From Deltaproteobacteria bacterium (lineage in GTDB: Bacteria > Bdellovibrionota_C > UBA2361 > JAFLCA01), in the NCBI GenBank assembly GCA_017302875.1, contig JAFLCA010000002.1, positions 1,118-65,117 of the forward strand: DNA of 64,000 bases, given 5' to 3'. Positions within the stretch are counted from its first letter, which is position 1; each line of letters opens with the position of its first letter. The position numbers and the translations under genes were made by a program. Below are positions 22,548-51,114 of the stretch, piece after piece. The notes beneath the pieces are model-generated. The model had not been told where the DNA came from, did no database searches, and was given only the letters and a program-made list of their open reading frames with translations.

Positions 22548-23855
22548 CTACTTTTTATCGATCGGCGCAGAGGCGAGAATCTTATCGAACATCTCCTTGA
22601 GGATGGCGCCATGTGCCACTTTAACCTTGCGGCCATTGAGCCACACCGACGGCGTGCCGGCCACTCCTAGACGCTCGCCCTCCGCAATGTCTTGCTGAAT
22701 CCGAGTAAGCTGACGTCCAGATTGCAAACACTCCTGTATCGCCTGTTCATCCAAGTTCAATACTTGGGTAGTGCGCAAAATCGCCGCGTCCACTTCCTCC
22801 TTGCTCTTCTGCTCATCTATCTCAGGTAATTGGAAGAGATAGTCGATGGCCGGCCAGAACTTGCCCTGCTCCCCGGCACAACGAGCGTACACGGCGGCAG
22901 AACAGGCGTTGCGATGCATCTCCATATCCATGGCCGGGTTACACGCGCGATCGAGCGGGAAGTTTCTAAATACGAAGTGAACCTTGTCTCCGTACTCCTT
23001 CAATAGTTCTTCGATTGCCAAATACAAATGGCGGCAGTGCGGGCACTCGAAGTCGGAAAATTCGACCAATTGCAGCGGGGCAAACTCCGGACCACGCGTG
23101 TAGTCTCTGTTTACTCCCTCTGAGTTGAGAGTGATATCGACCGGGACCTGCTTACTCCAGTCAGCAATCGCCGCTTTGACGACTTCCTCGAACTGCGCGC
23201 GGTTTGTTCCCGAGTTTGCAATCATCATTGCAACGAGCGGCGGAGACGCAAGAATCACATACGAGAGCACAGCAATCAGAAAACTCAGGGACCAACGCTT
23301 AAGGCGAAGACCGGCTGGGGCAAACACGACGAACTTCGGTGTCAGTGCAAGCGTTGCTACTCCGCGCGAAATCCGCGTGAAGAATCCGCCTGAAGGCCCA
23401 AAGGCGAGAGCGAGCATCAAGAGACTGAAATTAGCTATGTGCATCCCAAGGCACAGGATGCAGAGCGCTCCGACCAAAAACTCAGAGATGTAGAGAAGCA
23501 CCACAGAGAGAGCGCTGGATAATGCACTGAGAACCAGCAACACATCCCAAAAGGTGCGCCTCGGCAGCAAGCGATCCTTTAAGCTGACAAGCGCAAGAAT
23601 GAAAACACCGACGTAGAACGCCAAACCGAAAGCATCAAGCGGAATGCCAAAAGGAGTGGAGTATTTGCTGGCACTAACCGCATCGCAATTGACTCGATCG
23701 CTAATGTTACAGAACGAGGGGCCGCTTTTTAGGCCGTACATCAACTCGATATGGTTAAGGAGCGAGGCTGTCGCAAAACCCACTCCAACGAGACATACCA
23801 GAGGGACGCCGAAACGAGAGAGTTTTGAAAACTTATGTGAAAGCTCATCAGACAT
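22548..23855 (-). CDS. VKOR (vitamin K epoxide reductase family) - DsbA/thioredoxin fusion protein
   Basis: The N-terminal polytopic part has CNISDRVNCDAV and CILC motifs (VKOR type). The C-terminal thioredoxin fold has FSDFECPHCRHL. Start at the internal ATG 23855, 4 nt after the stop of the upstream membrane-protein gene. Confidence 0.8.
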   Translation of the reverse strand: MSDELSHKFSKLSRFGVPLVCLVGVGFATASLLNHIELMYGLKSGPSFCNISDRVNCDAVSASKYSTPFGIPLDAFGLAFYVGVFILALVSLKDRLLPRRTFWDVLLVLSALSSALSVVLLYISEFLVGALCILCLGMHIANFSLLMLALAFGPSGGFFTRISRGVATLALTPKFVVFAPAGLRLKRWSLSFLIAVLSYVILASPPLVAMMIANSGTNRAQFEEVVKAAIADWSKQVPVDITLNSEGVNRDYTRGPEFAPLQLVEFSDFECPHCRHLYLAIEELLKEYGDKVHFVFRNFPLDRACNPAMDMEMHRNACSAAVYARCAGEQGKFWPAIDYLFQLPEIDEQKSKEEVDAAILRTTQVLNLDEQAIQECLQSGRQLTRIQQDIAEGERLGVAGTPSVWLNGRKVKVAHGAILKEMFDKILASAPIDKK

Positions 23856-23859
23856 CGAG

Positions 23860-27698: not shown

Positions 27699-27716
27699 TC
27701 GCTATATCTGAGATAA

Positions 27717-29486: not shown

Positions 29487-29498
29487 CATCAGACGCTT

Positions 29499-31142: not shown

Positions 31143-31233
31143 GAATCCACCCCCAAGTTTCGATCAGGACATAAAGCAAGCCGCCCGGGGCTCCAGATAG
31201 TTCTTTTTTCCGAGAAAAAGAGTTAATCTTTCC

Positions 31234-35295: not shown

Positions 35296-35301
35296 AAGGC
35301 A

Positions 35302-37350
35302 ATGGAAATTTGCCTGACTGTCGCTCTCATCGCTCTCGCACTTTGCGCCGTAGGAATAGCTCCTTTTGAAGGAACGCTTGCCCTTCTATTGCTGACTCCT
35401 ATTTGCGCCTACCCTTTGGGTCTGCTTTTACCGGCGGGGAAACCACTCTACGTTATCTCCTTCGCCTTCCTTCTGACCTTGTTGATGGTTCTTAGCAAAG
35501 GCCGCTCGCTATATAGCCGCGATGAAGCCCTACAAGCACTTCTTCCCGTCGGCTATTTTGTAGTTTGCTTCTCAGTTTTTTCCTATCTCTGCCACTCGTG
35601 GCCGGACTTCTATCAACTAGGCGAACGTCTGCGTGATTTTGCCGTGCTGAGCGCGGTTATCAAATCTCCAATTGAAGCGCGTGAACCCTGGCTTTCGGGG
35701 TTTCCGCTAAATTACTACCTATATTGGTATCGCTTTGGGCATATGCTCAGCAGCGTGCTGAAGCTTCCAATCTGGGAAGTCTATCATCAGCTGCAAGCCT
35801 TCACCTTCGCGCTCTTTAGCACCTCGATTTTCGTGCTCTTTAGAAAGTATGCGAAGTTTCCAGTCTGGGGGGCGCTATTCACCGCCGCGATTATTACGCT
35901 TGGCTCAAACGCCGAGGGAATTTTGTACTTTATCAAGAACGACCCCAATTGGTGGGGGCCGTCACGAGTCATTCCGGGCGCAATCAACGAGTTCCCGGCT
36001 TGGTCGTTCCTTCTGGGCGACGTACACCCACACTATTTAAATCTGGGGCTAATTCCTTTTCTCTTGGGTATTTTCCTGTGCGTCTCACGCTCCACGCTGC
36101 AAATCGGCGCAAAATTATACTCTATTGTGGGCATACTGGCAGTTGGCACGTTGTGGTCGTACAACGCGAACGCTTGGGAACTTCCCGTATGGCTGGGTTT
36201 AAGCGCCGCGATCTTTACGAGCTCGCTTGCCGTTCTGCCTGTCGCTGAACTCAGAAAGATAGAGCGCCGAGACTTCCTGTCACTCCCGGCAGCTCTTATT
36301 GTCGCGCTCGTTGTCTACCTTGCTTACTCGCTGGCCCTTTCCTCTCTCAACATCGTTCCGGCGCACATGCCGTTAAAACTCGTCGAGATGCCGGTACCTC
36401 GTACCAGCGCCTTAGATTTGCTGCGACATTGGGGAATCCCGCTGGCAATCATCATTTTGAGCAGCATTCTTTCTTTACGAAAAATCGAATGGATGGTGAT
36501 TGCCGCGCTGGCATTTGGATTAGCTTTCGCCACTCGCAGCGCCATCGTTGTTCTGACTCTTACCTTCGTACTTGCCGCGTTGATAGCTTGGAATTCTCGC
36601 AAGGAGCCCGGCAGCGCAAGCTTAAGCAACTGCGTCTTCACGTCGATGGGGCTCCTCGCGCTCTTGCTCATTATATTTCCCGAATTGGCGTTCCTCGACG
36701 ACTCCTACGGCGGAGAAAACGAGCGAATGAACACCATTTTCAAAGCCTATAGCGCAGCTTGGTTTCTGCTGCACGGCTTTGCATTTTATTTGCTGGCGAA
36801 ATTGCCGAGAGCTTGGCTCAATCGCTTCCCGGACTTTCCGTTATTGCCCTTGGTGTTGGTGGTAGGAATTTTATGGATTGGATTTTTCTTCCGCACTATC
36901 AAACTCAGAAAGTCGAGCGAATTTGGCGTACAGCCTGCGGCACAAGGTCTTAGCGACATTGAAAGACGCTTCCCAGGTTCTGCAACCACGATACAGATTC
37001 TCACGAGAAGCCGTCCGGGAATTGTGCTGGAAGCGCAGGGCCCCGCCTATGACTTCACCTCACACATCGCGACTCTTTCGAGCCAGACTGCATACCTAGG
37101 CTGGGCAAACCACATCAATTTGCTTTTACAGGTATACCCGGAAGTTTCTCGCCGCGAGAAAATTACAGAAGATATGTACCGTGAAGCTGATTGCGCCAAG
37201 AAAAAGACTCTGGCGACTCAGGAACGCATCAACTACATAGTGCTGGGCCCGCTTGAAAAGCGCGCCTTCCCAGAAGCAAATGCAGAGCAATTTTCCTGCT
37301 TCAAGGAACTGATCAGGTCTAAAGAGTATCTGGTCTTCGAGAACCAATAG
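35302..37350 (+). CDS. DUF2298 / 'YYY'-domain polytopic membrane protein
   Basis: 682 aa. GFPLNYYLYWYRFGH, INEFPAWSFLLGDVHPHY, MNTIFKAYSAAW and YLGWANH align with the C-terminal half of 31234-35295. Confidence 0.65.
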   Translation: MEICLTVALIALALCAVGIAPFEGTLALLLLTPICAYPLGLLLPAGKPLYVISFAFLLTLLMVLSKGRSLYSRDEALQALLPVGYFVVCFSVFSYLCHSWPDFYQLGERLRDFAVLSAVIKSPIEAREPWLSGFPLNYYLYWYRFGHMLSSVLKLPIWEVYHQLQAFTFALFSTSIFVLFRKYAKFPVWGALFTAAIITLGSNAEGILYFIKNDPNWWGPSRVIPGAINEFPAWSFLLGDVHPHYLNLGLIPFLLGIFLCVSRSTLQIGAKLYSIVGILAVGTLWSYNANAWELPVWLGLSAAIFTSSLAVLPVAELRKIERRDFLSLPAALIVALVVYLAYSLALSSLNIVPAHMPLKLVEMPVPRTSALDLLRHWGIPLAIIILSSILSLRKIEWMVIAALAFGLAFATRSAIVVLTLTFVLAALIAWNSRKEPGSASLSNCVFTSMGLLALLLIIFPELAFLDDSYGGENERMNTIFKAYSAAWFLLHGFAFYLLAKLPRAWLNRFPDFPLLPLVLVVGILWIGFFFRTIKLRKSSEFGVQPAAQGLSDIERRFPGSATTIQILTRSRPGIVLEAQGPAYDFTSHIATLSSQTAYLGWANHINLLLQVYPEVSRREKITEDMYREADCAKKKTLATQERINYIVLGPLEKRAFPEANAEQFSCFKELIRSKEYLVFENQ

Positions 37351-37380
37351 TCCGCTAACGTTCCCGCATACGCGAAGAAC

Positions 37381-39366
37381 TTACTGCGGCTTCTGCGCCT
37401 CAGGATTTGCGTTCGCCTTGGGATTCACGAGGAACCATGCGTACGAATATCCGACCGGGCTCCACGGAGTATGATTCAAGGAATAGCCAAGAAATCGCTT
37501 CAGGGTCATCAGTCGCAAATCTGGAACCCACCAACCTCGTAAATTAATGCGCTGCGCGCGGAACTGCTCAGGCGCTGGCGGTTCATTGTCTTTCCAGTCA
37601 CGAATAATGTAGTCGAACTTCGCATACTCTTCGGCAGGAGCCTGGAATTTGTATTGCGGGATATCTCGCATATACCATGTCATTGGCCAGGTTGATTCTC
37701 CCATCACCAGGAGCTGAGGTTTGTACCCTTTTGTCTCCGTGGCAATCTCTTCCTTGATGGTGTTGGCGATGCCGTGAATTTCTTGAGTGGTATGAACCTG
37801 GCTTATGTACTCACGTGCTTCACCGGCATAGACATAGTTCGTCAAAATGGCCGCACGGGTCGTATAGATACAGAACAGCGCCAGCAAGAACCACTTCAAG
37901 TTCACGGTTCCGAGCATTCCAGCCGCGCGAAAGCTCATCCCCAACACGATCAGAAAAACTCCGCTCGCCACCCAGAAGAGATTCTCAGGGCTGCCTTCAT
38001 CAGCTGTGAAAAGAACGCCCAAGACAAGGACAATGATGCCCGTGCTGCGAATCAGTCGGGCCACCGAAAAATGCTGCCAATCGCTCACAGGAAAACGGCG
38101 GAAATAATCATCAAAATAGAGCGCTAGGTAGATCAAACCTGCAATGAAGGGGTACGTGGTCAGCCACGGAACCTTCTCCCCGAGATAACTGTACGTGCAA
38201 AAGTTTGCTAAGAACAAATAGCCAAAAAAGGCTAAGCGTCGATTGCGTTCAAGCAGGTGCACGACCGTCGTTAACACCGCCTGCGGCACTAAAATTAAAA
38301 AGCCGCACACGTCGTAGGCGTCCTTGAGCTTCAACAATCCGAGATACTTGTAGTCAGCGATCGTCTTGTCACTGAGGTATAGAGAAACGACCAAAGCCAT
38401 GACGAAAATAACAACGCCGCATACCTGCACCCAGCGCGCAGCGCTTCGGTAGAATGTCCAAAGGTACAAGCCAAAGGCGACAATGAAGGCCAATTCGTAC
38501 CAGGACAGCATATAGAAATGAAAAAGCCAGGGCCCGGTAATGCGATCGATATTGTGCTGATGCATCCAGTAGCCCAGGCTCTCGCGGTACAAACCGTCCA
38601 AGATACCCTGCATGTAACGGAATCCTGCACTGTAAAGATAGCAGTAAATGAAAACTCCCAAGCAGACAGCATTTAGCACCGCAAATGAGTGCGTCTTTAT
38701 GTGTCGAGCCATCTGCGCAAAGAGTGGGTTCTTATCTCCAAGCGCCTGAGCAGCGAAGCAATATTCAAACACCAAATAGCCGAACAAGATCGCGACCGTC
38801 ACATAGGCATTCTCTTTAATGCAGAACTGTAAGGTCAGTGCGACAAAAAAGATCAGCGCCTTACGACCGGGAGCGGCCAAGGTCGCGCCGTACAGCATTG
38901 CGACCATGCAGGCGATGATAAGCGTGTCCTCGCGTAAGAATCGGGACCAGTAAATTAGGGTCGGAGACAAAGCAACAGCCGCCGTAAGTGCCAATACTGC
39001 AAATCGCGAAAAGTAGTGCCGAAACAGGAAAGGAACAAAGATCAGACAAGAGCCAACGAAGTTAATCGGAACTCGCGAAGCCCAGTCTCCCTGACCAAGC
39101 GTGTTGTACACGATGCGATACAAATTATAGAGAAAGGGCCCGTGGAGGAGCGCTTGATAGCGATAGTAGTTCTGATCCGGGAAATCAAAAAAATATTTCC
39201 CATACATGCCATGCAAGGACTCATCGTGATGAAAGGGACGCATGTCCAGGGCGAACCAGCGCAGCAGCAAGCCCCCGGCAATCAGAAGGACAAACACGCC
39301 CCATTCCAGTGGGGAGAAGAAATCACGCGCACGCGACTCAGGGGGAGCGGTCTGCTCTAGACTCAT
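37381..39366 (-). CDS. TIGR03663-like / GT39-like polytopic membrane glycosyltransferase
   Basis: 661 aa. LLLRWFALDMRPFHHDESLHGMYGKYFF...LLHGPFLY...ALSPTLIYWSRFLRED pattern. Confidence 0.6.
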   Translation of the reverse strand: MSLEQTAPPESRARDFFSPLEWGVFVLLIAGGLLLRWFALDMRPFHHDESLHGMYGKYFFDFPDQNYYRYQALLHGPFLYNLYRIVYNTLGQGDWASRVPINFVGSCLIFVPFLFRHYFSRFAVLALTAAVALSPTLIYWSRFLREDTLIIACMVAMLYGATLAAPGRKALIFFVALTLQFCIKENAYVTVAILFGYLVFEYCFAAQALGDKNPLFAQMARHIKTHSFAVLNAVCLGVFIYCYLYSAGFRYMQGILDGLYRESLGYWMHQHNIDRITGPWLFHFYMLSWYELAFIVAFGLYLWTFYRSAARWVQVCGVVIFVMALVVSLYLSDKTIADYKYLGLLKLKDAYDVCGFLILVPQAVLTTVVHLLERNRRLAFFGYLFLANFCTYSYLGEKVPWLTTYPFIAGLIYLALYFDDYFRRFPVSDWQHFSVARLIRSTGIIVLVLGVLFTADEGSPENLFWVASGVFLIVLGMSFRAAGMLGTVNLKWFLLALFCIYTTRAAILTNYVYAGEAREYISQVHTTQEIHGIANTIKEEIATETKGYKPQLLVMGESTWPMTWYMRDIPQYKFQAPAEEYAKFDYIIRDWKDNEPPAPEQFRAQRINLRGWWVPDLRLMTLKRFLGYSLNHTPWSPVGYSYAWFLVNPKANANPEAQKPQ

Positions 39367-39414
39367 GGCTTTCTTTAAGAGTTCAGGTAAACGCTATAGA
39401 CTATGAGGTATAGG

Positions 39415-40776
39415 CTATACTTTGAAGGTGCTCTCCTCAACACCCTTCAGCATATAGTCAGCCCATTCCACGCCCTGCATAAAGGAGTGATCCTGATTGG
39501 CGACCTCGTATTTCCAGCCACCGAATCGGCCTCGCGAGTAAACGCCCAGCTTTTGAAGGGCCGGCATCACGTCCTTAATAATGGCATCACGCTCCAATGA
39601 CGGGGTCGGATACCCGTATGGAGCATGGAAGGTCCACGTCGATACGATCTGATCTTTGTCGGAAATGAGCTTGGTATTACGCAACCCGGAAATGGTCTCC
39701 TCCAGAAGCGTTTTGTGGTTCACTGGTTTTGCCGGAGACTCGCTGGTTTCAGTCATCAGAGAAAACTGCGTCTTTATATCAGGAACATTGAGAGGACTGT
39801 ATTTGGAAAACAAAGTGACGCGGTAGAAGGGACAGTCGCTTTCCGGAAAGTACATCCAGCATTTGCTTTCAAGTTCAGGCTTGGGCTGTCCGCGTAGTCC
39901 CACGCCAACAATATTTGTTGAAGAATACTTCAGACCACCTGCGCGTTGCTTTAGGGCATCCGGTATTTCACTAACCAGCCCTGCGCAAATATCAAGCGGC
40001 ATGGTTGAGAGCAGATGCTCATACTGCACGCTGCTTCCATCCGAGAGCAGCACCGAGCGCTCTTGAGCATTAATTCTAGTGACGGTGCAGTTCGTGCGGG
40101 TCTTATCAGCTCCTACCATCTTGCCGACGGCATGCCAGATTGCACCAGTTCCTCCCTGCTTGGGAAAACGAAATTTGTTGTTCGGCCCCCAGGAAACATC
40201 ATCGCGCTCAAGTATTACATTCTCGAGCACTCGGTTCAGATCAACAACTGAAACTCGCTCCCCGATCCAATGATAGGCCAGCTCAGTAAGCGGATAGGCC
40301 CATACCTTGAAGTTATAGGGGTTCATGAACTCTTCGCCGATTCCGGCACCAAAGATCGACTGCGTCCATTCCGCAAAGTTCGCGGGCTTACGGGCAAGTG
40401 GATTCTTGGTGATTTCAATGATGCCCTTGAGGCACTTCCACACGGATTCTTTAGGCAGATAGCGAATGTTATTTTGGAAGGGATAGGGCACGAAGCGATT
40501 CTTTATCCATACCCAAGACTCTCGTTCATGCTCGAGCCAGCCGTCCTTGCCGAGCGATAAATCCATGACGTCATCGAAATACTTGTAGTGCGAGAACTGC
40601 ACGTGCCCGCCGATATCCCACCAAAATCCGGCATCATCTTTAAAGCTCGTGGCTAGCCCACCAACCCAAGGGTTTTTCTCCAGCAGTAAATAGTCCTGCT
40701 CGCCGAGATCTTTGAGACGATAGGCAGCACCAAGCCCTGTCGGGCCGGCACCAAGGATGAGGTATTTTACTTTCAT
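39415..40776 (-). CDS. glf: UDP-galactopyranose mutase, eukaryote-type (long form)
   Basis: 453 aa with FAD motif ILGAGPTGLGAAYRL. Shared blocks include GGHVQFSHYKYFDD, VPYPFQNNI, PYNFKVWAYP, WIGERV and WGPNNKFRFPKQGGTGAIW. Further blocks are CWMYFPESDCPFYRVTLFSKYSP, YGYPTPSLERD and SRGRFGGWKYEVANQDHSFMQGVE. These match my recollection of fungal/protozoan UGM sequences. Confidence 0.7.
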   Translation of the reverse strand: MKVKYLILGAGPTGLGAAYRLKDLGEQDYLLLEKNPWVGGLATSFKDDAGFWWDIGGHVQFSHYKYFDDVMDLSLGKDGWLEHERESWVWIKNRFVPYPFQNNIRYLPKESVWKCLKGIIEITKNPLARKPANFAEWTQSIFGAGIGEEFMNPYNFKVWAYPLTELAYHWIGERVSVVDLNRVLENVILERDDVSWGPNNKFRFPKQGGTGAIWHAVGKMVGADKTRTNCTVTRINAQERSVLLSDGSSVQYEHLLSTMPLDICAGLVSEIPDALKQRAGGLKYSSTNIVGVGLRGQPKPELESKCWMYFPESDCPFYRVTLFSKYSPLNVPDIKTQFSLMTETSESPAKPVNHKTLLEETISGLRNTKLISDKDQIVSTWTFHAPYGYPTPSLERDAIIKDVMPALQKLGVYSRGRFGGWKYEVANQDHSFMQGVEWADYMLKGVEESTFKV

Positions 40777-40789
40777 AAGCGCGTTCTTA

Positions 40790-41566
40790 TTAGCGTCCGC
40801 GCAAATTTAGAGCAGCACGCTGGGCTTTAATATCCTTGAGTGCGGAGGGAAGCGCCAATCGAAAATCGATTAATTCTCGCACGCAGCGTAAGCAGGCTTT
40901 TATAAGTCGCCAGCGAACAATAGAGACAGTTCCCGTTTCGCGTTCGCGATGCGTTATTGGAATAGCCATCAAGTCTTGACCGTCGCGCGCGGCCAGAACT
41001 GCCAAGAAAATGTTCGGTGCAAAAACTGTTGGGTTAATATGCCCAAGCAAAATCTTTAAGTAGTCACCCTGAATGAGCCTGAATGGAATATTGGAGTCCC
41101 GCAGCCAGGAGCCAAAGAGCACAAAATTTAAAACGCGCAGAATGCGAGTGATAACGAGTCGATGGAAAGCATCGTGGCGGTCACGACGAAACCCTAAGAT
41201 AAAATTTGACTGCGAGCGCTTATTCCAAAGTATCGCGAGCTCTGCACTATCGAACTGATCGTCGCTGTCGACATGGAAAACCCATTGCGCACCAAGCTCA
41301 ACAGCCTTGTCGTAGGCTGTCCGTAAGGCCTTACCATGCCCGCCGTTAGTCTGATGCACCACCACAAGTTTCGGGTAGGTTTTAGCCGCCTCATCAAGCA
41401 TGGCGCCCGTACGATCTTTTGAACCGTCGTTGACGACGATTAACAGTCCCGATTCGAGACCAAGGCCGTCGATGGCGCTGATCCATTTTTTGACTACGTC
41501 TTTAATGCAGCCCTCTTCGTTGTAGGCCGGCATAACGATGCAAAGTTCAGGGCGCGAAGTCGGCAT
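40790..41566 (-). CDS. Glycosyltransferase family 2, Dpm1/Ppm1-like (candidate polyprenyl-phosphate hexosyltransferase)
   Basis: 258 aa. CIVMPAYNEEGCI...VVNDGSKDRT...GGHGKALRTAY...HVDSDDQ GT-A motifs. The polyprenyl-phosphate acceptor is inferred from its position next to the GT-C genes. Confidence 0.6.
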   Translation of the reverse strand: MPTSRPELCIVMPAYNEEGCIKDVVKKWISAIDGLGLESGLLIVVNDGSKDRTGAMLDEAAKTYPKLVVVHQTNGGHGKALRTAYDKAVELGAQWVFHVDSDDQFDSAELAILWNKRSQSNFILGFRRDRHDAFHRLVITRILRVLNFVLFGSWLRDSNIPFRLIQGDYLKILLGHINPTVFAPNIFLAVLAARDGQDLMAIPITHRERETGTVSIVRWRLIKACLRCVRELIDFRLALPSALKDIKAQRAALNLRGR

Positions 41567-41812
41567 GAGGTACCTGGAATTTAAGGAACTGTATTAACAG
41601 CGGTTTTTTCTAAAGCTAGCCGGTTTAGGCAGTAACTTCAATAAGTTAAATAACTTAGTCGTCAGCTTTTAGATGCGGCTAAACGACAAACTCCAGACTC
41701 AAATTAACGCAATAATATTAGTGGGTTAAAGATTATTTGAAGCATTGTTATATTTCCTGCTGATAGATAAGTGGGGGACAGGGTGTGAAGTGTGCAATCG
41801 CGAGAGATTCGT

Positions 41813-42358
41813 ATGCGTGTGTCATCAAAATCCCCCCTTCGAGAACGCGGCGGCGTTATCACCGAGTGCGTGCTGGTAATCCCCGTCATGCTGGTTCTCT
41901 TTACCGGCCTTACTGAGCTGGGTCGAACCTTCTCCCAGATAAACTGGGTCGCCAATATTTCCTACGAAGTTGCTATGGTCGGCGCCAGCGTATCCGAGAC
42001 TGCCGGTGGCGCGCTTGCAATGGACGGGCGCTATGCTCAGCTTAGTGCGATTCCGTACTACAAAGTCACCTTGCCGAGCGATCCAACCTCCAAGGTCTAC
42101 AATCAGACTGACCTACACGTCAGCGGGCAACCACCTCGAAGCGTTGAAGTTGCTATCCATGCGACACTACCCACGTTGCTGTCACATGTATCACCCACCT
42201 TTGACGTACGCGCGACCGCGCCGATTTTGGTGCTTTCGAATGTGCTCCCGGGGGGACTCAGCACCTTTAGCAATCCAAATCCGCTTTATGACTGCTGCGG
42301 CCGCGAGTATTCGGGCGCGCCCATTGATACGTGCTTGAATCCCCCGCCCGCTTGCTAG
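41813..42358 (+). CDS. TadE-like pseudopilin-type protein (cassette A, gene 1)
   Basis: MRVSSKSPLRERG|GVITECVLVIPVMLVLFTGLTELGR is a TadE-type N-terminus with Glu at +5 after the Gly. The upstream GTG at 41792 is an alternative start. The C-terminus is Cys/Pro-rich. Confidence 0.65.
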   Translation: MRVSSKSPLRERGGVITECVLVIPVMLVLFTGLTELGRTFSQINWVANISYEVAMVGASVSETAGGALAMDGRYAQLSAIPYYKVTLPSDPTSKVYNQTDLHVSGQPPRSVEVAIHATLPTLLSHVSPTFDVRATAPILVLSNVLPGGLSTFSNPNPLYDCCGREYSGAPIDTCLNPPPAC

Positions 42359-42502
42359 TTGAACGCTAAGATACTCCATTGAGGAAAGGCGACACGCGCA
42401 ATAGAATCAATGGATTAAGCGGCCCGCGATCTTTTTAAGCCCTTTTTGATAGAACTGTGTCGTACGCTGGTGCGGCGCTTTGGACTTTAAACAAGTCGGT
42501 AC

Positions 42503-43900
42503 ATGCGTTTGTTTTCTCGTAGAATTTTCAGCAGCAAGCTTCCCGCCCAAGACGGTGCCTCATTTATTGAAGCGGCGCTGACGTTGCCAATATTTTTGAT
42601 GGTGCTTCTCTTCACTATCGACATGGCGCGCTTCTTCTTTATTTGGGCAGTGATTAATTTTGCCGCCCACCACGCGGTCGATTACGCTGCGAAGATCGAA
42701 GTCGAGGCGCGAACAGATGAGGCAAGCTGCTTCTCGCAACCGGCAAGCTGCACCGATTATCGAAATCGAATTTTATCTCCAACCGGCGTACTCGCCAAAG
42801 CCGAGAGGTACGCGAAATATGCCGCAACCGAAGGCCCCAGTGCTTCCCAACTTGTCCCTTTTAATCACTATTGGAACCCGGACTACACGCAAGCACCGCC
42901 TGCTGGCCACTATGGATCAGGCCTTGTTGCGAGCGGCAACATTCGATTGGCAGGATTTTTACGCCCTGGCGAGTACATTCGCCGAGAAGACGGGAGCGGG
43001 CAGTTTATAGAGCATCCGACCCGTAAGCCTTTAACGGATCACTTGTATTGGCCTGGAATCAGCGAGAACTGGGCGACTATTTTAGAGAACAATCCGCTGC
43101 TCGTGCACATCGAAGTGCGCTTCAAGGCAGTAACACCGTTCATCCCTGAGTTGCGCATCGTTGCCAATCAGATTGCGTATCGCCGCAGCCGTACGCCGGG
43201 AATCGGCGGGCCGATTACTCCAATTCCATCGAACACCCCAACAGCGACAGCAACGGCGACGGCATCCAACACGTTCACGCCGCGACCTTCAGAGACAGCA
43301 ACCGCGACCGCTTCTCCGACGGAGACGACCACTCCGACGCAGACGGCAACCATGACACCAACGGGCACCGAGACCCCAACGGCAACTCAAACTCCCACGG
43401 GAACCGCTACTCCAACTTTTAGCCCGACTGGAACGGTAACCCCAACGCCATCGCTATCACCAACGCCGACGCAGACGCCAACATTTACGGCAACGCCAAC
43501 AGCTACCCCAACTCCGACACCGACGGGTACGCCAACGCCGACACCAACGTATACGACTAGCCCCACACCAAGCATCACTCCGACCGAATCGCCAACGGGA
43601 ACCGTAACTCCAACGGCCACTCAATCTCCCACGGCCACACAGTCGCCAACTCCATCGTTAACGCCGAGTGAAACACCGACAGCCACGGCAACACCGACTC
43701 ACACGGCCACACGCACGCCTACAGCAACCCCAACTCCGAGCCTCACGGCGACTGCAACGCCCACGCATACGGCAACTATAACACCAACTCCTACTCATAC
43801 ACCGACGGTTCATTGTGGTGATTGCGTAACGAATGGCTGCCAGCAGGACTGTCGTGAATACTGTTGTTCAAGTGGCTGCGGCGATTTGTGCGGAGGATAA
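42503..43900 (+). CDS. TadE-like N-terminus + globular domain + Thr/Pro-rich stalk + Cys-rich C-terminal tail (cassette A, gene 2)
   Basis: 465 aa. ...PAQDG|[28 protein letters not shown] at the N-terminus. Residues about 231-436 are almost entirely T/P/A/S. The last 28 aa are [28 protein letters not shown]. Confidence 0.75.
43193..43810 (+). repeat. Degenerate in-frame ACN/CCN repeat region encoding the Thr/Pro stalk
   Basis: Runs of TPTATxTPTxT peptide units, seen in the nucleotide sequence as repeated acg/aca/acc-cca/ccg/ccc codons. The mirror V/G-rich ORFs on the opposite strand are artefacts. Confidence 0.85.
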
Positions 43901-43958: not shown

Positions 43959-46184
43959 ATGCGCCAAGAAAAAGGTCTCTATATCGTATTCTTCGCTCTC
44001 CTGCTTTTCGTGCTGCTCGGATTAGTGGCGCTGGCGCTCGGCCTCGGCTACATCGGCACTAATAAGACTCGCCTGCAAAATGGCGTCAACTTAGCCGCTC
44101 TCGCGGCGCTTGAGAAATTCGCCGGTTTACCTCAGAGCGATTCGTACCTAGTGCGCGCCGACAAAGCCCGCGATCGGGCGAGTGAGATTTTTGCAGCAAA
44201 TATTTTACCCGGTGTAGAGCACCCCTTGGGAGAACTTGGCCACCATGGCGCAGCCGGGCCCGGTGGAACAATTACCCTTGGCAACTGGTATCAGAAGAAA
44301 CCAAATCCCGTCGACGATCCCTGCACGGGAAGCTACCCCTGCTTCGTCGCGAACCCCGATCCAAGCGGTTCCGTGCCTAACAACCAACCAATGAATGCAG
44401 TGCGTATTGAAGCCCACAATCAAAGCAACAATCCGCTGCTTTTCAGACTTGGAAGATTTTTAGGAAAAGATAGCTTCATCCTGTCGTCGAGCGCCACAGC
44501 GACGGTCGTTCCACGCTGTACCGCGTACTTGATGGACGTTAGCGATTCATCTTACTTCGAAACTCATCCAACGTTGCCGATTGGATCAAGCCAGGTAAAT
44601 TCCTGCATTACTCCTGGCAGTGTTCCCCCGGCCTGCCCGGACCCTAGCTGCCTTCCCGGATGTTTAGCCGGAGAACCTGCATGTTATGGCGGCTGTAATC
44701 CTTACAAAACAGCGAATTTAAGCGTCACACCGATTAATTTTGGTCTTGGCGCATATCGGTATAGCCCTCAGTACACGCCAACTCATTTGGAATGCGCAGC
44801 TTCGACGAACTACGATCTGGGCAACCAACTTTCCCGTCAGACAGTGTATTGGTGTAACTCGCCTCATATTGGCGCCCCTGATGGAGCACGTCCCGGCGTT
44901 CCACCTTCCTCAGGCATCTTCCGTCACTATCAGTCAGACTATGAACTAGAAGATTCACCGCTTCCAGGAGGCGGCGTTGGTCAAATCTGGGTTGATAAAC
45001 TGTATGTCGCAGGGGCAACGGCGGCAGACCCAGTGTACGATGGTCCGCAACCCTTCACTCGGAATTTTTTGGCCTTCAACGCCGGGCTGCGACAAGTTCA
45101 GTCCACGACAGTTGGCGGAGATCTTTCCTATATCATGGCTTTCACCGGACAGCCGCGCAGTTCAGTTCCAGCCACGGGATTAACTTCGGATTTGGGATTC
45201 CTGATTCAATTAACCAATCTCGACAACCGTGGAAAAAGAGATTGGCAAGGCGTTCCTGTAACTACAGAAATCCACCCCAATTTTATTGATTTCGGCTGGG
45301 CACCGTTTCCGGGCGAAGGATTCGACTCAACCAGCGCGATTGGAAATGCTGTGTATTTCGCAGCCGAGCGCCTTCACTCCAGCTGCCCGTCGCAGTCGCG
45401 CAAAACTATTTTGCTGGCATCTGACGGACAAGCCAACACTCACTTCGGCGCGATTCCGGAACCGCAGGGCCTAAACGGATACAACAACTATGTCGCAGCC
45501 GTAAATCAACTTCTTAATACTTCGATCCCGGTACTCGGCGGCGGCCCCAATAAACCGCCGATTCTACAGATGCTCAAAGAGTATGAAATTTCATTCTCGA
45601 TGATTATGGACGGGTTCCATATTGCACCGAACTTTCTCAACATAGCGAGCGGTGAGTGCGGAGCGGCGTCGACTTGGACACCGGGTTCCGGCTTCGGAAA
45701 TGACGACCCGAAGTGCTATTTTTCCTTTCAGGAAGGTTACGCGCACGGCTTTGGCGGCAAACGTTCCCCTTCGCCCCTGTTTGACTGGGAAAGCTACGAC
45801 CCCTCTGGAACACCGACCGATCCAGCGACCGCGTACGACAACGCCGGAAGAATTCCTGGCTGGTCATTCGGAGATCCGATTGGGGTATGGAGCGACGTTG
45901 CGCTGGAGACCGGCGGGTATTTCTGCCCACTTCTGGCAGTTGCGCCAGTCGGGCAGTATGTCGACTTTTATGGCGATCGCGGCGGAGCTGCTTGTGATGC
46001 TCCCTGTCCAGGCGGGGTAAATTGCAGCCCCTGTGTACTACGCAGCGCGGCACGAAATCCCAATCCAGGTCAAAACATTCAGAAGTTTGCACCGCAGTAC
46101 ACTAGGAAAAGCGAGCAGGCAGCGCAGTGCGCGCGTCAGGCAGTTGGACTCAATCCATTTACCCTGGTCGAGAAAGACAATTAA
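43959..46184 (+). CDS. TadG-like protein with N-terminal hydrophobic helix and vWA domain (cassette A, gene 3)
   Basis: 741 aa. MRQEKGLYIVFFALLLFVLLGLVALALGLGYIG matches the Tad/TadG N-terminal pattern. MIDAS DVSDS at 44535-44549, later LLASDGQAN. Good AAGAGG Shine-Dalgarno. Confidence 0.7.
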   Translation: MRQEKGLYIVFFALLLFVLLGLVALALGLGYIGTNKTRLQNGVNLAALAALEKFAGLPQSDSYLVRADKARDRASEIFAANILPGVEHPLGELGHHGAAGPGGTITLGNWYQKKPNPVDDPCTGSYPCFVANPDPSGSVPNNQPMNAVRIEAHNQSNNPLLFRLGRFLGKDSFILSSSATATVVPRCTAYLMDVSDSSYFETHPTLPIGSSQVNSCITPGSVPPACPDPSCLPGCLAGEPACYGGCNPYKTANLSVTPINFGLGAYRYSPQYTPTHLECAASTNYDLGNQLSRQTVYWCNSPHIGAPDGARPGVPPSSGIFRHYQSDYELEDSPLPGGGVGQIWVDKLYVAGATAADPVYDGPQPFTRNFLAFNAGLRQVQSTTVGGDLSYIMAFTGQPRSSVPATGLTSDLGFLIQLTNLDNRGKRDWQGVPVTTEIHPNFIDFGWAPFPGEGFDSTSAIGNAVYFAAERLHSSCPSQSRKTILLASDGQANTHFGAIPEPQGLNGYNNYVAAVNQLLNTSIPVLGGGPNKPPILQMLKEYEISFSMIMDGFHIAPNFLNIASGECGAASTWTPGSGFGNDDPKCYFSFQEGYAHGFGGKRSPSPLFDWESYDPSGTPTDPATAYDNAGRIPGWSFGDPIGVWSDVALETGGYFCPLLAVAPVGQYVDFYGDRGGAACDAPCPGGVNCSPCVLRSAARNPNPGQNIQKFAPQYTRKSEQAAQCARQAVGLNPFTLVEKDN

Positions 46185-46414: not shown

Positions 46415-47230
46415 ATGCGTGACTACACTTCATTGAGTCCTCGTTCCCTCAAGCGAGCTAACATGAAAGGTTCAGTCCTGCTGGAGTTCGCTATCGTCGT
46501 GCCCCTTCTGGTGGTCTTTTTTCTGGGCATCTCCGGAATTGGACAGCTACTTGGGCATGTAACTTGGATCTCACAAACGACCTACGCTGCGGCTCTCTTC
46601 GCAGCCGACGTGCCGCAGCCTGACGGGCCAGCTAAAGTTCAGCAAGCTACCGAGCGTTTAAGCGAAGCTCAAAATCGAGGTCAAGTCAGCGGTGATTGGA
46701 ATGCGCCAGTCTACACCGTAGGACAGATCACAGGCAAACCCATTGTAAGCGTAAGCGTCCCTGCGAATGTTTCGCCTCTCGTAAGCGCCATGTTTTCATC
46801 CAGTATCGGTGTGAGCGTAGCAGCTCCCTACCTTGTACCGAGCCAAGCAGCCTTCGCTGGGTTTAACGATTTTGCCAATCCCTCTGGCATCGTTACCTGC
46901 TATGCAGCCTCTTGTAACCCGATCGCACCGTATAATCCCGGGATTAGGAAAATAACCACCTTACCGGGTGAGACGAATTACGCTTACTATAATCCCACGA
47001 ACGAAGAGTCCACGAGAGCTTTTGAAACCTTTATGTCCACCATGGGCGGCCTGGATCGAAGTAGTCCGACTTACATAGAGGATGCTGCTGCTACGTACGA
47101 GAAGCTTATGTCAGCTTTTGAGGGTGCTATTTCCAACGATCCCTCGCTAGCCAAAGCGCTGACTCGATTGGACCCGATGACGACTGAATCGAAAAAAAGC
47201 ACCCGTACAGAGTATACGATTCTAGATTAG
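46415..47230 (+). CDS. TadE-like pseudopilin-type protein (cassette B, gene 1)
   Basis: 271 aa. ...SLKRANMKG|SVLLEFAIVVPLLVVFFLGISGIGQ TadE-type N-terminus with Glu at +5. Confidence 0.65.
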   Translation: MRDYTSLSPRSLKRANMKGSVLLEFAIVVPLLVVFFLGISGIGQLLGHVTWISQTTYAAALFAADVPQPDGPAKVQQATERLSEAQNRGQVSGDWNAPVYTVGQITGKPIVSVSVPANVSPLVSAMFSSSIGVSVAAPYLVPSQAAFAGFNDFANPSGIVTCYAASCNPIAPYNPGIRKITTLPGETNYAYYNPTNEESTRAFETFMSTMGGLDRSSPTYIEDAAATYEKLMSAFEGAISNDPSLAKALTRLDPMTTESKKSTRTEYTILD

Positions 47231-47339: not shown

Positions 47340-48818
47340 TTGAGCTTCCCGTTTCGTAAAATTTTCCGATTGCCGCCTGCCTTGGCCCGCTGGGGTTCCC
47401 AGCGCTCAGAGCTTGGCGCCTCCATTCTGGAAGCGGCTATCTCCCTGCCGATCTTCTTCTTATTTATTTTCTTCTTGATCGATCTCGCCCGGTACTTTTT
47501 CATCTACGCGATTCTGAACTATGCGGCGTACAGCGGAGTGGATCTCGCTTCAAAACTCGAAGTTGAAGCCAATACAACTGTCACCGGCTGTGCCGCAGAA
47601 TCGACCCCCTGTGCTCGTTATGGAAATTCAGTCGCCTCCATTTTAGATCGCACTACACGCCTCGCGTATTTAGTTGCGAGCCCCTCAACCGTCGCAAGCG
47701 GAGCTCGACTACAGTCATTCGCTCACTACGTTCCTTCGATGTACGACAGTGGGCAGAACAATTCGGGCCTTAGTCCGTTTTTAACGGTACCCTTTTCAAA
47801 AGATGCTGCTTTTCTTCGTCCGGGAGAAGTCGTTTGTCGTAATGGAACCTGCGATTCGCCTAACCAGGTTCAGCACAACTTTCGAGAGTACGGAACCGGA
47901 ATTGGAAAAGGCTGGCCTTCAGACAATGAAAACTGGGCGTCGATTCTAGAAAGCTCCCCCTTAGAGATGCGACTTGAAGCAGAGTTTACGCCGGTTACTC
48001 CATTCTTCCCACACCTTAGAATTCACGCCGTGCAGTACGCCTACCGCAGCGTGAAGAAGGCGGGCCGCCCCTATAGCTTCGTCTCGGCACCCACAAATGC
48101 GCCTTCAGCAACTTCGACGATGACACCGACCTCCACCCCGGTGCCGCCTTCACCGACACCGCCCGTCACGCCTACGGCGACCCTCTCTCCGACGACGACG
48201 GTAACTCCGACAGCCACCAGCAGTCCGACGGCAACAACGAGTCCGACCGCGACCATTACGCCGACTAATAGCCCAACAGCCACGCAGACCCCGACTGCAA
48301 CGAATTCGCCGACGGCCACAAACAGCCCGACGGCGACGAGCACTCCGACTTTGAGCCCAACTGCGACTAGAAGCCCGACGCCAACTCAGACCCCCACGGC
48401 GACGAACAGTCCAACACCAACTGCGACACCTTCAAATTCGCCAACATTTACGTACTCGCCAACTGCAACACACACGCCAACGGCGACTAGTACGGCAACG
48501 CCAACCGTCACTCCGACTTTCACCCCGACGGCTACGTCGTCGCCAACAGCAACACAGAGCCCGACGCCAACGTTATCGCCAACCCCAACAGCTACGGGAA
48601 CTGTTACTCCGACAGCGACACTCTCGCCGACGGCTACCATTACCCCAACGGCAACTTCAACGCCGACAGCGACACAGCGTCCTGAGTGCGCCAACTGCGC
48701 TTGCGGAAACACCGGGTCATGCTGCAGCCAGGCGGGGATGATGTATGTGTGTAACGTACTTTGTGGTGGCATTCCGCTGTGCGGTCAAGCGAATTGCTGC
48801 CCAGGAACGGGCGGATAG
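47340..48818 (+). CDS. TadE-like N-terminus + globular domain + Thr/Pro-rich stalk + Cys-rich tail (cassette B, gene 2); paralog of 42503-43900
   Basis: 492 aa with TTG start. ...SELG|[28 protein letters not shown] at the N-terminus. Residues about 250-447 are T/P/S/A-rich. The tail is [43 protein letters not shown]. Confidence 0.75.
48087..48680 (+). repeat. Degenerate in-frame ACN/CCN repeat region encoding the Thr/Pro stalk
   Basis: SPTATxSPTAT / [11 protein letters not shown] peptide units. Opposite-strand V/G-rich ORFs are artefacts. Confidence 0.85.
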
Positions 48819-48866: not shown

Positions 48867-51113
48867 ATGAAAATCTCGGCGAATCACTCCAAGAATGAGA
48901 AAGAACGGGGACTATATCTAATCCTCGTGGCTTTTTTCATTTTCGTTCTTGTTGCCCTGTGCGGCCTGGTGATTGGTCTTGGGTTTCTCTCTACCAATCG
49001 CTCTCGCCTTCAGAACATTGCTAATGTCAGCTCTATAGCGGCACTCGACGGCTTCATCCAAGCTCGCAATCCTTCTACAGGGGATCCCTTGGCGTACGAT
49101 GTTCGAAAGACTGTCGCGATGAACCGCGCCAATGAACTAATTGTGGCGAATAAGAAACTACCGGGAGTCCGGTTTGATCTTGGGGAAGTTGGACTGGCCC
49201 CTGCAGGAGGCAATGGCGGTAAACTAACAGTCGGAATGTGGTATCCGGAAATACCCGCTACCGGAACACCGTGCGGAGCCAATGCCTCCGACTACCCTTG
49301 CTTCCGGGAGAATCCGGTCGTGCCCACAGGAACGCCGATAGCCAATGCGGTGAGACTCGAAGTATTCAGTCAACCGACAAATCCTCTAATTGCTCCCTTC
49401 GCATCCTTTTTTGGTCAACATGGAATTACTCTTAACACGACCAGCATTGCCCGCGTCGTTCAACGTTGCGTAGTGTTCCTGCTAGACGTTTCACTATCCA
49501 CAGTTCAGGAGACTCATTTATACGGCAGAAATGCGCCTGCCCCGCTGCCTCCCGATCCGGCATGCATTCCTCCGGAGCTCGGTGGAGCCTGCACGCCGTT
49601 GATGCAGGTGACGCTCGCTCCGACGCCGGCACTGGTTATCAGCGAACCGCAGCCGCCATCGCTTTTTGCCTATCGCGTAAGTGCGCTTGGCCCGCTTGCA
49701 TCGCGCACTCCGCCGCTGACTCCGCCACCATTTCCAACGCCGAACCCGTGTCAGAATCTGACGAGCTATTGGGCGGCCAATTCCGGGGAAGATCTGCTCT
49801 ATTTTTGTAATATGAAGACTTCGCGTACGGGATTTATGTCCCCGCCGTATGTTCAGCATTATCGCTCAGATTACCGGATCCACCCCTCGATATTTGGCGA
49901 CGTCTTCATTGATAAATACGAGGAGAATATCAACACGTACGTTGGTCCAGAACCGCTTAGCCGATTCTTCCTTTCCTTTAACGCGGGGCTGCGTGCGGTT
50001 AATCAGGTGCGATCGCCTGGCGACAAGGCGCTGCTATACGTGTTTACGGGCAAAGCAGTCGGCACAGAGCCGCAATCCACGCCTCCAACCTACGAACTGA
50101 CCGAGAACCTAAATTCGCTTATTCAACTGACAAATATTTACAACCGTGGAACCATCGATCGAAACGGAGCCATCGTACACCCAGTCGTAACTCCGAACTT
50201 CGTATCACGCGGATTTTTCCCGATTCTTGCTTCGAGCGCTGACACCATTAGCACCACTACGAACTTAGGCCTGGCACTTTGGGACGCGATTGGAGCCCTC
50301 AGCAGCTGCCCGGACTCTGCTCGACGTTCCATCATCGTAGCCACAGACGGGATTCCGAGTTGTGGTTGGAATACACAAGGCAGCCTTAACGGCACCCCGC
50401 GTCCCGATCCCATTTTTGACTGCCCTCCACCGACGAACGGCGATTACTACACCAATTACCTTCAGGCAGAACAATCCATTCTTGGCCCCATCAAGGATGA
50501 ACTGGTCCGACGCGGCATTTCAGTGACTGCGCTGCTCGACGCTGAAAACATTCAACCAAATTTTATAAATGCAACGATTCCTCCCGGAGCCGGCACACCG
50601 ACAGGAGACTTTGTGGACCCTGAAGATGCCGCTCAGAACGGATTCTGCGCCGGAGTTCCAACTCCGATTGGAGGCGGCGCCGCACCTTGCGATAAACCAT
50701 TCTTCCTCTCTAGCCCTGTAATTCCTGACGAGGCACTGGGCCCGTACAATGCCTGGGTGGCAGGCGGACCCTCAGCCCCCGTGGACTACGATCATTTCGC
50801 ATTCAAGTACAGCGACACCCCAAATTTAGGAGTCAAATTCCGCCGTCCCAACGCACTATGGGGACAGCTTGCACTCGACACCCAAGGCGTCATTTGCCCG
50901 TTATTGCCAGAGTGTCCTCCACAGGCGTACGCTCCGGGAATTCCTCCAAATCCGCCGCAGATATTGCCGACCTGGAGACAAGGTATGTCCGTTATGGACT
51001 GCTCTCCAGCCAAACAGAGTAAGGCGCAACAAGCGGTGAACTGCGTGCTTGCAGCGATTGGCGTGAACCCATATCAGAACGTCGAAGAAATTCCTCCAAC
51101 CGTTGCTCCATAA
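48867..51113 (+). CDS. TadG-like protein with vWA domain (cassette B, gene 3); paralog of 43959-46184
   Basis: 748 aa. KERGLYLILVAFFIFVLVALCGLVIGLGFLS at the N-terminus. MIDAS DVSLS at 49485-49499, later IVATDGIPS. Colinear with 43959-46184 over the whole length. Confidence 0.7.
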   Translation: MKISANHSKNEKERGLYLILVAFFIFVLVALCGLVIGLGFLSTNRSRLQNIANVSSIAALDGFIQARNPSTGDPLAYDVRKTVAMNRANELIVANKKLPGVRFDLGEVGLAPAGGNGGKLTVGMWYPEIPATGTPCGANASDYPCFRENPVVPTGTPIANAVRLEVFSQPTNPLIAPFASFFGQHGITLNTTSIARVVQRCVVFLLDVSLSTVQETHLYGRNAPAPLPPDPACIPPELGGACTPLMQVTLAPTPALVISEPQPPSLFAYRVSALGPLASRTPPLTPPPFPTPNPCQNLTSYWAANSGEDLLYFCNMKTSRTGFMSPPYVQHYRSDYRIHPSIFGDVFIDKYEENINTYVGPEPLSRFFLSFNAGLRAVNQVRSPGDKALLYVFTGKAVGTEPQSTPPTYELTENLNSLIQLTNIYNRGTIDRNGAIVHPVVTPNFVSRGFFPILASSADTISTTTNLGLALWDAIGALSSCPDSARRSIIVATDGIPSCGWNTQGSLNGTPRPDPIFDCPPPTNGDYYTNYLQAEQSILGPIKDELVRRGISVTALLDAENIQPNFINATIPPGAGTPTGDFVDPEDAAQNGFCAGVPTPIGGGAAPCDKPFFLSSPVIPDEALGPYNAWVAGGPSAPVDYDHFAFKYSDTPNLGVKFRRPNALWGQLALDTQGVICPLLPECPPQAYAPGIPPNPPQILPTWRQGMSVMDCSPAKQSKAQQAVNCVLAAIGVNPYQNVEEIPPTVAP

Positions 51114-51114
51114 A

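Follow-up and report, generated by a model that had tools for sequence, protein, structure and literature searches.

Two genes in the stretch of DNA analysed here (the window, 64,000 nucleotides of contig JAFLCA010000002.1 from a Deltaproteobacteria bacterium), at 42503..43900 and 47340..48818, encode proteins that start like a prepilin, continue as a long Thr/Pro-rich stalk and end in a short, Cys-dense tail closed by Gly-Gly. What might such proteins be? We read them as modular, TadE-class minor pilins of a Tad (type IVc) pilus that would carry a disulfide-locked mini-domain, on a probably O-glycosylated stalk, at the tip of the pilus, and we put the probability of this reading at roughly 55%. 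Each stalked gene is the middle one of a three-gene cassette, A or B, laid out as follows in the coordinates of the window.

41792..42358, forward strand: small TadE-family minor pilin (predicted), cassette A; 188 amino acids from the GTG at 41792 (or from the ATG at 41813); Pfam TadE, E 1.3e-5.
42503..43900, forward strand: stalked TadE-family minor pilin (predicted), cassette A, here stalked A; 465 amino acids; Pfam TadE PF07811, E 3.2e-8.
42503..42556, forward strand: prepilin-type leader of stalked A; 18 amino acids ending in Gly before ASFIE, Glu at +5; cleavage presumed.
42557..43198, forward strand: pilin module of stalked A (residues 19–232), a long alpha-1 helix and an alpha/beta globular domain; from the AlphaFold2 model.
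43199..43813, forward strand: Thr/Pro-rich stalk A; about 205 amino acids (residues 233–437), 41% Thr and 21% Pro; from composition.
43814..43897, forward strand: Cys tail A; 28 amino acids (residues 438–465), 8 Cys, Gly-Gly and then the stop; from the translation.
43959..46184, forward strand: TadG-like large minor pilin (predicted), cassette A; 741 amino acids, 20 Cys; Pfam Tad PF13400, E 1.5e-8.
46415..47230, forward strand: small TadE-family minor pilin (predicted), cassette B; 271 amino acids; Pfam TadE, E 3e-5; G|SVLLEF site.
47340..48818, forward strand: stalked TadE-family minor pilin (predicted), cassette B, here stalked B; 492 amino acids, TTG start; 26-residue leader before ASILE; Pfam TadE, E 1.7e-10.
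48075..48686, forward strand: Thr/Pro/Ser-rich stalk B; about 204 amino acids, 38% Thr and 21% Pro; from composition.
48687..48815, forward strand: Cys tail B; 43 amino acids, 10 Cys, PGTGG and then the stop; from the translation.
48867..51113, forward strand: TadG-like large minor pilin (predicted), cassette B; 748 amino acids; from homology to TadG-like A.

On what does the assignment to the pilins rest? The Pfam TadE model scores stalked A at 34.0 bits, stalked B at 41.3 bits and the small pair at 25.6 and 24.5 bits, against a cut-off of 22.9. All four TadE-like proteins have a short leader ending in Gly, a Glu at +5 and a hydrophobic helix; the prepilin-type sites read G|ASFIE (stalked A), G|ASILE (stalked B), G|GVITE and G|SVLLE (the small TadEs). 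In an alignment of 26 sequences of the family, Glu23 is invariant within the consensus GASxxEAALxLPxFLL, and the pilin module holds a Cys pair of which C76 is near-invariant and C83 invariant. The AlphaFold2 model of the N-domain of stalked A, built from the same alignment, has a mean predicted local distance difference test score (pLDDT) of 89.1 and a predicted template modelling score (pTM) of 0.84; it predicts a 48-residue helix (residues 17–64) followed by a mixed alpha/beta globule, the ‘lollipop’ of a pilin. A regular-expression scan of the window for Flp-type pilins and further prepilins recovered only the small TadE of cassette B, already known. We conclude from these features that the stalked proteins are TadE-family minor pilins of the Tad type, an identity that the first-pass annotation had not given. 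They are also modular in the accepted sense, a pilin module being joined to a further module of a kind not peculiar to pili, except that the linker is long and not short.

The two cassettes are related throughout. The stalked paralogs are 43% identical across their first ~235 residues (the N-domain), the TadG-like proteins 31% and the small TadEs 27%, and because of these identities we regard the region as a tandem duplication of a cassette of small TadE, stalked TadE and TadG-like genes. TadG-like A scores 21.9 bits with the Pfam Tad_C model, slightly under the cut-off of 22.1; TadG-like B reaches only E 1.5e-3 with Pfam Tad, under the cut-off, and matches TadG-like A at E 7e-84. Both TadG-like proteins contain a DxSxS motif resembling a metal-ion-dependent adhesion site (DVSDS at 44535-44549 in A, DVSLS at 49485-49499 in B) with an S/TDG motif later on, which suggests a divergent vWA domain undetected by Pfam.

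The tails are the unusual part. Their translations agree with the first-pass annotation, made from the letters of the window alone, which had counted 8 Cys in the 28 residues of tail A and 10 Cys in the 43 residues of tail B, each before a terminal Gly-Gly. The framework of tail A is C-x2-C-x4-C-x3-C-x3-CC-x3-C-x3-C, then GG and the stop; that of tail B is CxxCxC-x5-CC-x8-C-x3-C-x5-C-x4-CC, then PGTGG and the stop. The two are similar in composition and different in Cys pattern. Cys makes up 1.4% of the other open reading frames (ORFs) of the window, at which rate the binomial probability of at least 8 in 28 residues is 4e-9 and that of at least 10 in 43 is 4e-10. The enrichment of the tails in Cys is far beyond chance, even corrected for the ~19,000 possible positions.

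Do the tails belong to a known domain family? A Pfam hmmscan of both tails and of eight family tails, taken to E=10, gave no relevant match (none to metallothionein, zinc-ribbon, CBM1, hevein/CBM18 or knottin families at E<=10), and phmmer of the tails against PDB sequences gave no match to E=10, with the caveat that the filters of HMMER may hide very weak matches. The novelty claimed for the module by the first-pass annotation thus stands, as a module without a known signature; it does not amount to a wholly new class of adhesin, since cassettes of TadE, TadE and TadG belong to the known framework of modular minor pilins and Tips (PMC12075869, PMC8179133). The adhesin function put forward in the annotation is a candidate role. 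A profile of tail A made from three sequences (window A, L001 and L002a, the latter two from orthologous loci described below) scores those three only, and when the A- and B-tail profiles were run over every protein retrieved and every ORF of 12 loci, they recovered their training sequences and nothing else. Homology between tails A and B is thus not detectable, and no other carrier of the modules came to light there; a profile search, as had been proposed, finds for each tail its own orthologous group and not the other tail. A word-indexed protein search with the type-B tail alignment gave no candidates. Tail DNA as the target of a diversity-generating retroelement was considered and rejected: blastn-short of the tail DNAs against the window gave themselves and chance matches of 10-15 nucleotides.

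How do the tails evolve between species? A scan of the GTDB species genomes gave four true orthologous loci (L001-L004), all in metagenome-assembled genomes (MAGs) of Bdellovibrionota/Oligoflexia; the synteny of the flanking transketolase, AhpC, hydrolase and ParE/GyrB genes is kept in these orthologs. At the syntenic locus L001 has one cassette, L002 two and L003 three, one cassette of L003 being inverted. The order TadE/TadE/TadG recurs in L001-L004 and in L009, L010 and L011, and is seen beside the distant family members P0001 and P0005. A stalk and a Cys tail are present in all of the orthologous stalked proteins; the second stalked protein of L002 is a 600-residue form with a stalk of ~300 residues and a different 10-Cys framework. 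The A-type framework, CxxC-x4-7-C-x3-C-x3-5-CC-x3-C-x1-3-C, is shared by window A, L001 and L002a, and the B-type framework, CxxCxC-x5-14-CC-x8-10-C-x3-C-x4-5-C-x3-4-CC, by window B, L003a, L003b, P0004 and P0061. In ortholog pairs the non-Cys positions of the tails are only 11-39% identical, against 44-58% for the pilin modules. Judged from these alignments, the tails are, between species, a fixed scaffold with fast-evolving loops.

The wider family was gathered by an exhaustive HMMER search with the N-domain profile, one representative being kept per cluster at 50%, and comprises 419 representatives at E<=1e-3 and 116 at E<=1e-10. (A word-indexed protein search gave 0 matches with N-domain A and only 2 with the 26-sequence alignment.) Among the representatives listed, 130 are 260 residues or longer, and 114 of these close with a Cys cluster, whose median length is 38.5 residues; the 60 residues before the cluster have a median Pro/Thr/Ser content of 50%. 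The architecture of stalk plus Cys tail thus recurs in more than 100 family clusters, and the frameworks are kept in the orthologs; a lack of conservation of the Cys pattern, which the first-pass annotation had named as a refutation, is thus not what is seen. The number of Cys is even in 105 of these 114 members and odd in 9 (binomial P 3.4e-22), the commonest counts being 6 (37 members), 8 (32), 10 (9) and 12 (5), and dozens of distinct Cys frameworks occur across the family. The even number points to disulfides rather than to metal sites. Extracytoplasmic Cys are likewise even in number in each of the six cassette proteins of the window. Where the source is named (five representatives), it is in every case an Oligoflexia or Bdellovibrionales MAG, and the annotation reads ‘pilus assembly protein’ or ‘hypothetical protein’. 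Atypical members (among P0011, P0013, P0027, P0049, P0057 and P0029) have several Cys modules with Pro/Thr linkers between them, or else Cys-rich repeat arrays of 300-550 residues or Asp-rich, calcium-binding-like repeats; CGDG...C repeats are seen, for example, in the Bdellovibrionales protein MCB0332526.1.

And the stalks? The DNA of stalk A contains only weak tandem repeats, of 18-24 nucleotides. Gly/Val-rich ORFs on the reverse strand overlie the stalks (43387-43620, 48071-48343 and 48386-48772); as genes they were rejected, being mirror-image artefacts of a coding strand rich in ACN and CCN. Immediately upstream of cassette A lies a block of genes of the glycosylation type, identified by their Pfam and NCBIfam families and including glycosyltransferases of fold C (GT-C) and of family 2 (GT2).

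25515..41566, strand not assigned: the glycosylation-type gene block as a whole, the upstream context of cassette A.
25515-27698: PMT_2 GT-C gene.
31234-35295: PMT gene with DUF2298/Chlor_Arch_YYY.
35302-37350: DUF2298 gene.
37381-39366, reverse strand: Agl23-like gene.
39415-40776, reverse strand: FAD amine-oxidase-like gene (FAD oxidoreductase).
40790-41566, reverse strand: GT2 gene, polyprenyl-P-sugar-synthase-like.

The DUF2298 protein matches TIGR03662 with 439 bits and the Agl23-like protein TIGR03663 with 219 bits (cut-off 126); the large ORFs 23860-25530, 27717-29486 and 29499-31142 gave no family match. The block is archaeal or Chloroflexi-like in appearance, yet it lies in a Bdellovibrionota genome. 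Its DUF2298, Agl23-like and GT2 genes are syntenic with the cassettes in L001 and L002. The stalk had been called glycosylatable in the first-pass annotation, and this fits the adjacent GT-C/Agl23/GT2 block with its synteny in two relatives. The block is a plausible candidate for the machinery of stalk O-glycosylation, and because such a block accompanies Thr/Pro stalks, O-glycosylation of the stalk in the periplasm is plausible too. Two further genes of the window deserve mention.

22548..23993, reverse strand: VKOR-thioredoxin/DsbA fusion, a disulfide-forming oxidoreductase (VKOR E 7e-27, Thioredoxin_4 7e-24, DSBA 9e-13).
59925-60806, reverse strand: ParA/MinD-like ATPase (AAA_31, CbiA), either of the TadZ/CpaE positioning type or an ordinary partition protein.

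The VKOR-DsbA fusion gene stands near genes of very Cys-rich exported proteins. The first-pass annotation had offered either a disulfide knot or a metal-binding cluster; the Cys parity and this oxidoreductase support the former, and the parity disfavours the latter.

An exact look-up of the window protein in public assemblies had no match. Metagenomes allow the locus to be compared within the species; run X3 includes a contig of 80 kb, and runs X1 and X2 contain ~85% of the sequence words. In the strain of run X3, a biofilm metagenome, positions 41700-51200 are 95.6% identical to the window and neither stalk carries an indel. Tail A is identical; tail B has 5 synonymous and 0 non-synonymous differences and by this pattern is under purifying selection within the species. 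The part of stalk B from 48400 to 48686 differs at 22 nucleotides, with 2 amino-acid changes, and the last 419 coding bases of gene B at 27, again with 2 amino-acid changes, both in the stalk. Because the codon changes in the stalk are almost all synonymous and no indel occurs, the exact sequence and length of the stalk also appear to be under purifying selection. Runs X1 and X2 contain a minor variant in which one loop residue of tail A is Ala instead of Asp, while the codon of the neighbouring Cys differs only synonymously. In a metagenomic RNA-Seq run from mud, short contigs match both stalked genes at 98% or more, tail B included, which hints at transcription of both genes, DNA carry-over being possible. 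Across runs X1-X14, near-identical sequence occurs in activated-sludge and biofilm metagenomes, while mud, freshwater, pond and wastewater samples give weaker matches. The organism belongs to the uncultured Bdellovibrionota of wastewater and freshwater, the closest genome found being JAYRHW010000235 (L003).

How might the parts work together? We infer prepilin processing, tip location, disulfide bonding, glycosylation and ligand binding from the features described above. The stalked protein would be made as a prepilin, from which a prepilin peptidase presumably removes the leader by cutting behind the conserved Gly, and the mature protein would be held by its hydrophobic alpha-1 helix. By analogy with KilL/M/N and TadE/F/G, the three proteins of one cassette (stalked, small TadE-like and large TadG-like) may together form a tip or priming complex of the Tad pilus. 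The stalk of ~200 residues, rich in Thr and Pro, is probably extended, and may be O-glycosylated by the neighbouring GT-C/GT2 system. The 8 or 10 Cys of a tail, even in number, would all be paired as intramolecular disulfides. Orthologs share one framework but differ in their loops, and the family as a whole holds many frameworks; the knot is therefore most likely a small, stable module for ligand recognition or adhesion, which would lie tens of nanometres past the tip of the pilus. With two cassettes, the cell would be able to build either of two tips. The Gly-Gly end would be a flexible, Gly-rich end of a kind common in the family and not a sorting signal.

Several observations weigh against this reading. 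The Tad core genes (ATPase, platform, secretin, Flp and prepilin peptidase) were not found in the 64-kb window, and likewise TadA/CpaF, TadB/C, RcpA, Flp and TadV were not found beside the cassettes of P0001 and P0005. That the proteins belong to a pilus is thus argued from their family and by analogy. The absence of core genes weakens membership of TadE but does not exclude it, because detached clusters of minor pilins are documented in Myxococcus and Bdellovibrio. A Foldseek search of the N-domain model against the PDB gave nothing meaningful (best E 0.96), so the term ‘pilin-like’ rests only on the topology of a helix plus a globule. To our knowledge no TadE or TadF structure has been solved, which would account for the empty result. 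The AlphaFold2 model of tail B, run on a 3-sequence alignment after structure prediction had been suggested as a check, is unreliable at a pLDDT of 52 and yields neither a fold nor a disulfide map. No glycosylation genes stand beside the cassettes of the distant members P0001 and P0005. Between strains the tails are conserved, with no diversifying selection.

Could the tail instead be a structural staple? Intermolecular disulfides to the TadG-like protein, to the small TadE or to an envelope protein would then lock or tether the tip complex. In cassette A, Cys is abundant at or close to the C-terminus of each of the three proteins. The small TadE, as the first-pass annotation had remarked of its end, is Cys/Pro-rich over its last 23 residues (42287-42355), with 4 Cys, ending YDCCGREYSGAPIDTCLNPPPAC; its orthologs in L001 (9156-9821) and L002 (5722-6309) keep the CLYDC...CC...C...C end, with 6 Cys each against 4 in the window. 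The Tips of Myxococcus, too, are predicted to be disulfide-rich, and extensions of KilL wrap around their partners (PMC12075869). On the other hand, the even number of Cys per tail (105/114) suggests self-contained pairing. A flexible stalk of ~200 residues would be an odd device for reaching a neighbouring subunit, and the small TadE of cassette B differs, with only 2 Cys and a Cys-free extension of ~100 residues. We consider a staple unlikely.

A second possibility, in our view quite unlikely, is that the tail is an effector, a cystine-framework ‘warhead’ that would be brought by the pilus to another cell and perturb the envelope of prey or competitors in the manner of a tethered defensin or a knottin-type toxin. 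The many frameworks and hypervariable loops of the family would suit such a role, as would the use of Tad/Kil pili in contact-dependent killing (Myxococcus) and in prey invasion (Bdellovibrio), and the named family members are all Bdellovibrionota. The tails have no similarity to toxin, defensin or knottin families in Pfam or the PDB, however, the reading presupposes a predatory lifestyle in this lineage, and no release mechanism is apparent. Just as improbable, we think, is that the proteins are not pilus subunits at all, the TadE-like N-terminus serving as the uncleaved membrane anchor of a periplasmic or cell-surface stalk protein. The lack of Tad core genes nearby, in the window and at the P0001 and P0005 cassettes, and of a solved pilin structure like the N-domain would be expected of a mere anchor; the invariance of the G|xxxxE prepilin site and the constant linkage to second TadE-like and TadG-like genes would not, and minor-pilin clusters detached from the core are normal in Myxococcus and Bdellovibrio.

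That the tail is a metal-binding cluster, like a metallothionein or a Zn, Cu or Fe-S site, is very unlikely. It has a Cys density of 23-29% with CxxC, CxC and CC motifs, as in metallothioneins, and a His stands immediately before tail A; but the even parity is strong across the family, the loops often contain aromatic and bulky residues, and neither metallothioneins nor zinc-ribbons match in Pfam even at E<=10. Once exported by Sec and processed as a prepilin, the protein is, moreover, predicted to lie in an extracytoplasmic, oxidising setting, and a VKOR-DsbA gene is present in the window.

What of the Gly-Gly end, on which the first-pass annotation had laid weight? The emphasis was misplaced, in that GG is missing from the closest orthologs, whose last residues are TGV, SGT, GGM and GEN. 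Across the family Gly does account for 32% of the five C-terminal residues, compared with 7.5% overall, an exact GG end occurs in 15 of 104 members, and a Gly-rich end is also seen in Cys-less members (P0012 ends ...TGGGG). No hydrophobic segment follows the tails, because each ORF stops directly after Gly-Gly, and NCBIfam, which holds models of the GlyGly-CTERM and MYXO-CTERM type, gave no match at E<=0.1 for the six cassette proteins, so that the exclusion of these known signals in the annotation is upheld. A new C-terminal sorting or processing signal, read by an unidentified protease or transpeptidase, is highly improbable despite the Gly-rich ends of Cys-less members, as the tails have no transmembrane helix, no basic residues and no sorting-model match, lose their GG in the nearest orthologs, have no sortase, exosortase or rhombosortase-like gene in the annotation of the window, and would as a signal not need 3-6 disulfides or dozens of frameworks.

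We therefore keep to the stalked proteins as tip-borne minor pilins with a terminal cystine module. A literature search of limited reach found no prior description of a Cys-rich module on a Tad minor pilin; a stalk with a terminal cystine framework would be an undescribed addition to modular minor pilins, which are themselves already known. How Tad pili recognize their targets is poorly understood, and recent work has proposed that swappable minor-pilin tips give predators their target range. The locus and more than 100 related clusters suggest that tip specificity can also arise in another way, through a minimal disulfide knot that a TadE-class pilin carries on a long stalk and that domain databases do not see. 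If this is confirmed, the modular pilins would gain a new class of module. It would also offer a way into how uncultured Bdellovibrionota, frequent in activated sludge and freshwater, recognize prey or surfaces, provide a natural collection of tiny, stable binding scaffolds, and indicate protein O-glycosylation of the archaeal/Chloroflexi type (GT-C, Agl23-like) in Bdellovibrionota. A bolder extension, which we hold to be rather unlikely, is that uncultured Bdellovibrionota possess a large and so far unannotated repertoire of knots of 6-12 Cys, in dozens of frameworks and with hypervariable loops, which long glycosylated stalks would tether to the tip pilins of Tad pili, acting as interchangeable prey or surface ligands or as envelope-active warheads and thereby setting host or prey range. 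Were it true, this pilus-borne repertoire would be a bacterial analogue of the diversification of conotoxins and knottins.

How, then, do the stalked proteins compare with known systems? In fungal cellulases a catalytic domain is followed by an O-glycosylated Pro/Thr/Ser linker and a C-terminal, disulfide-stabilised CBM1 of ~36 residues. The likeness lies in an O-glycosylatable linker that ends in a very small disulfide-stabilised domain; here, however, the carrier is a pilin and not an enzyme, the linker is ~5 times longer, and no CBM1, hevein or CBM18 match is found in Pfam. Conotoxins, knottins and defensins are free, secreted eukaryotic peptides with a Cys spacing fixed by lineage, an even number of Cys and hypervariable loops. 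The tails resemble them in the fixed spacing, the even number of Cys, the hypervariable loops and the many alternative frameworks but form the C-terminus of a bacterial pilin and have no sequence similarity to them. The GlyGly-CTERM (rhombosortase) and MYXO-CTERM signals, too, are motifs with Gly or Cys close to the end of secreted proteins, in related bacterial groups, but they need a transmembrane helix and basic residues after the motif, whereas the proteins here end 2-5 residues past the last Cys.

Modular pilins with effector modules grafted on for display at the tip are widespread (PMC8179133). PilB (vWA) and PilC (lectin) of Streptococcus sanguinis, and CofB/TcpB of type IVb pili, share with the stalked proteins an N-terminal pilin carrier and a C-terminal effector module, an expected location at the tip and, in CofB, a flexible linker (Raynaud et al. 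2021, PMC8179133). In those proteins, from type IVa (T4a), type IVb (T4b) or monoderm pili, what is grafted on is a large folded domain (vWA, lectin or beta-sandwich) and the linker is short; here a tiny cystine-rich peptide sits on a very long low-complexity stalk, in the TadE family of Tad (T4c) pili. Stalk and knot both lack a signature, so that surveys based on InterPro would miss such a module.

A close parallel in cassette architecture is found in the Kil Tips. The Kil/Tad pilus of Myxococcus has four paralogous, detached ‘Tip’ cassettes of KilL/M/N (TadE/F/G-like), disulfide-rich by prediction, which set prey range, and Tip-like complexes are predicted in Bdellovibrio (PMC12075869). In B. 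bacteriovorus the Tad machine and TadG are required for stable attachment to prey and for invasion (bioRxiv 10.64898/2026.07.08.737194). The matches of the tip1-4 hidden Markov models are restricted to Myxococcota (PMC12075869), and the cassettes described here are therefore at best a distinct type of Tip. The text of that paper contains neither ‘linker’ nor ‘proline’ nor ‘threonine’ and mentions disulfides only in general terms; a stalk with a knot is not described in it. Alike in both systems are two smaller TadE/F-like genes and one large TadG-like gene per cassette, paralogous cassettes detached from the core tad genes, and many predicted disulfides (Herrou et al. 2025, PMC12075869). In the Kil Tips the variable parts are proposed to be exposed at the tip of the pilus; what sets the present cassettes apart is a TadE-class pilin that bears a Thr/Pro stalk of ~200 residues and, at its end, a Cys knot of 28-43 residues.

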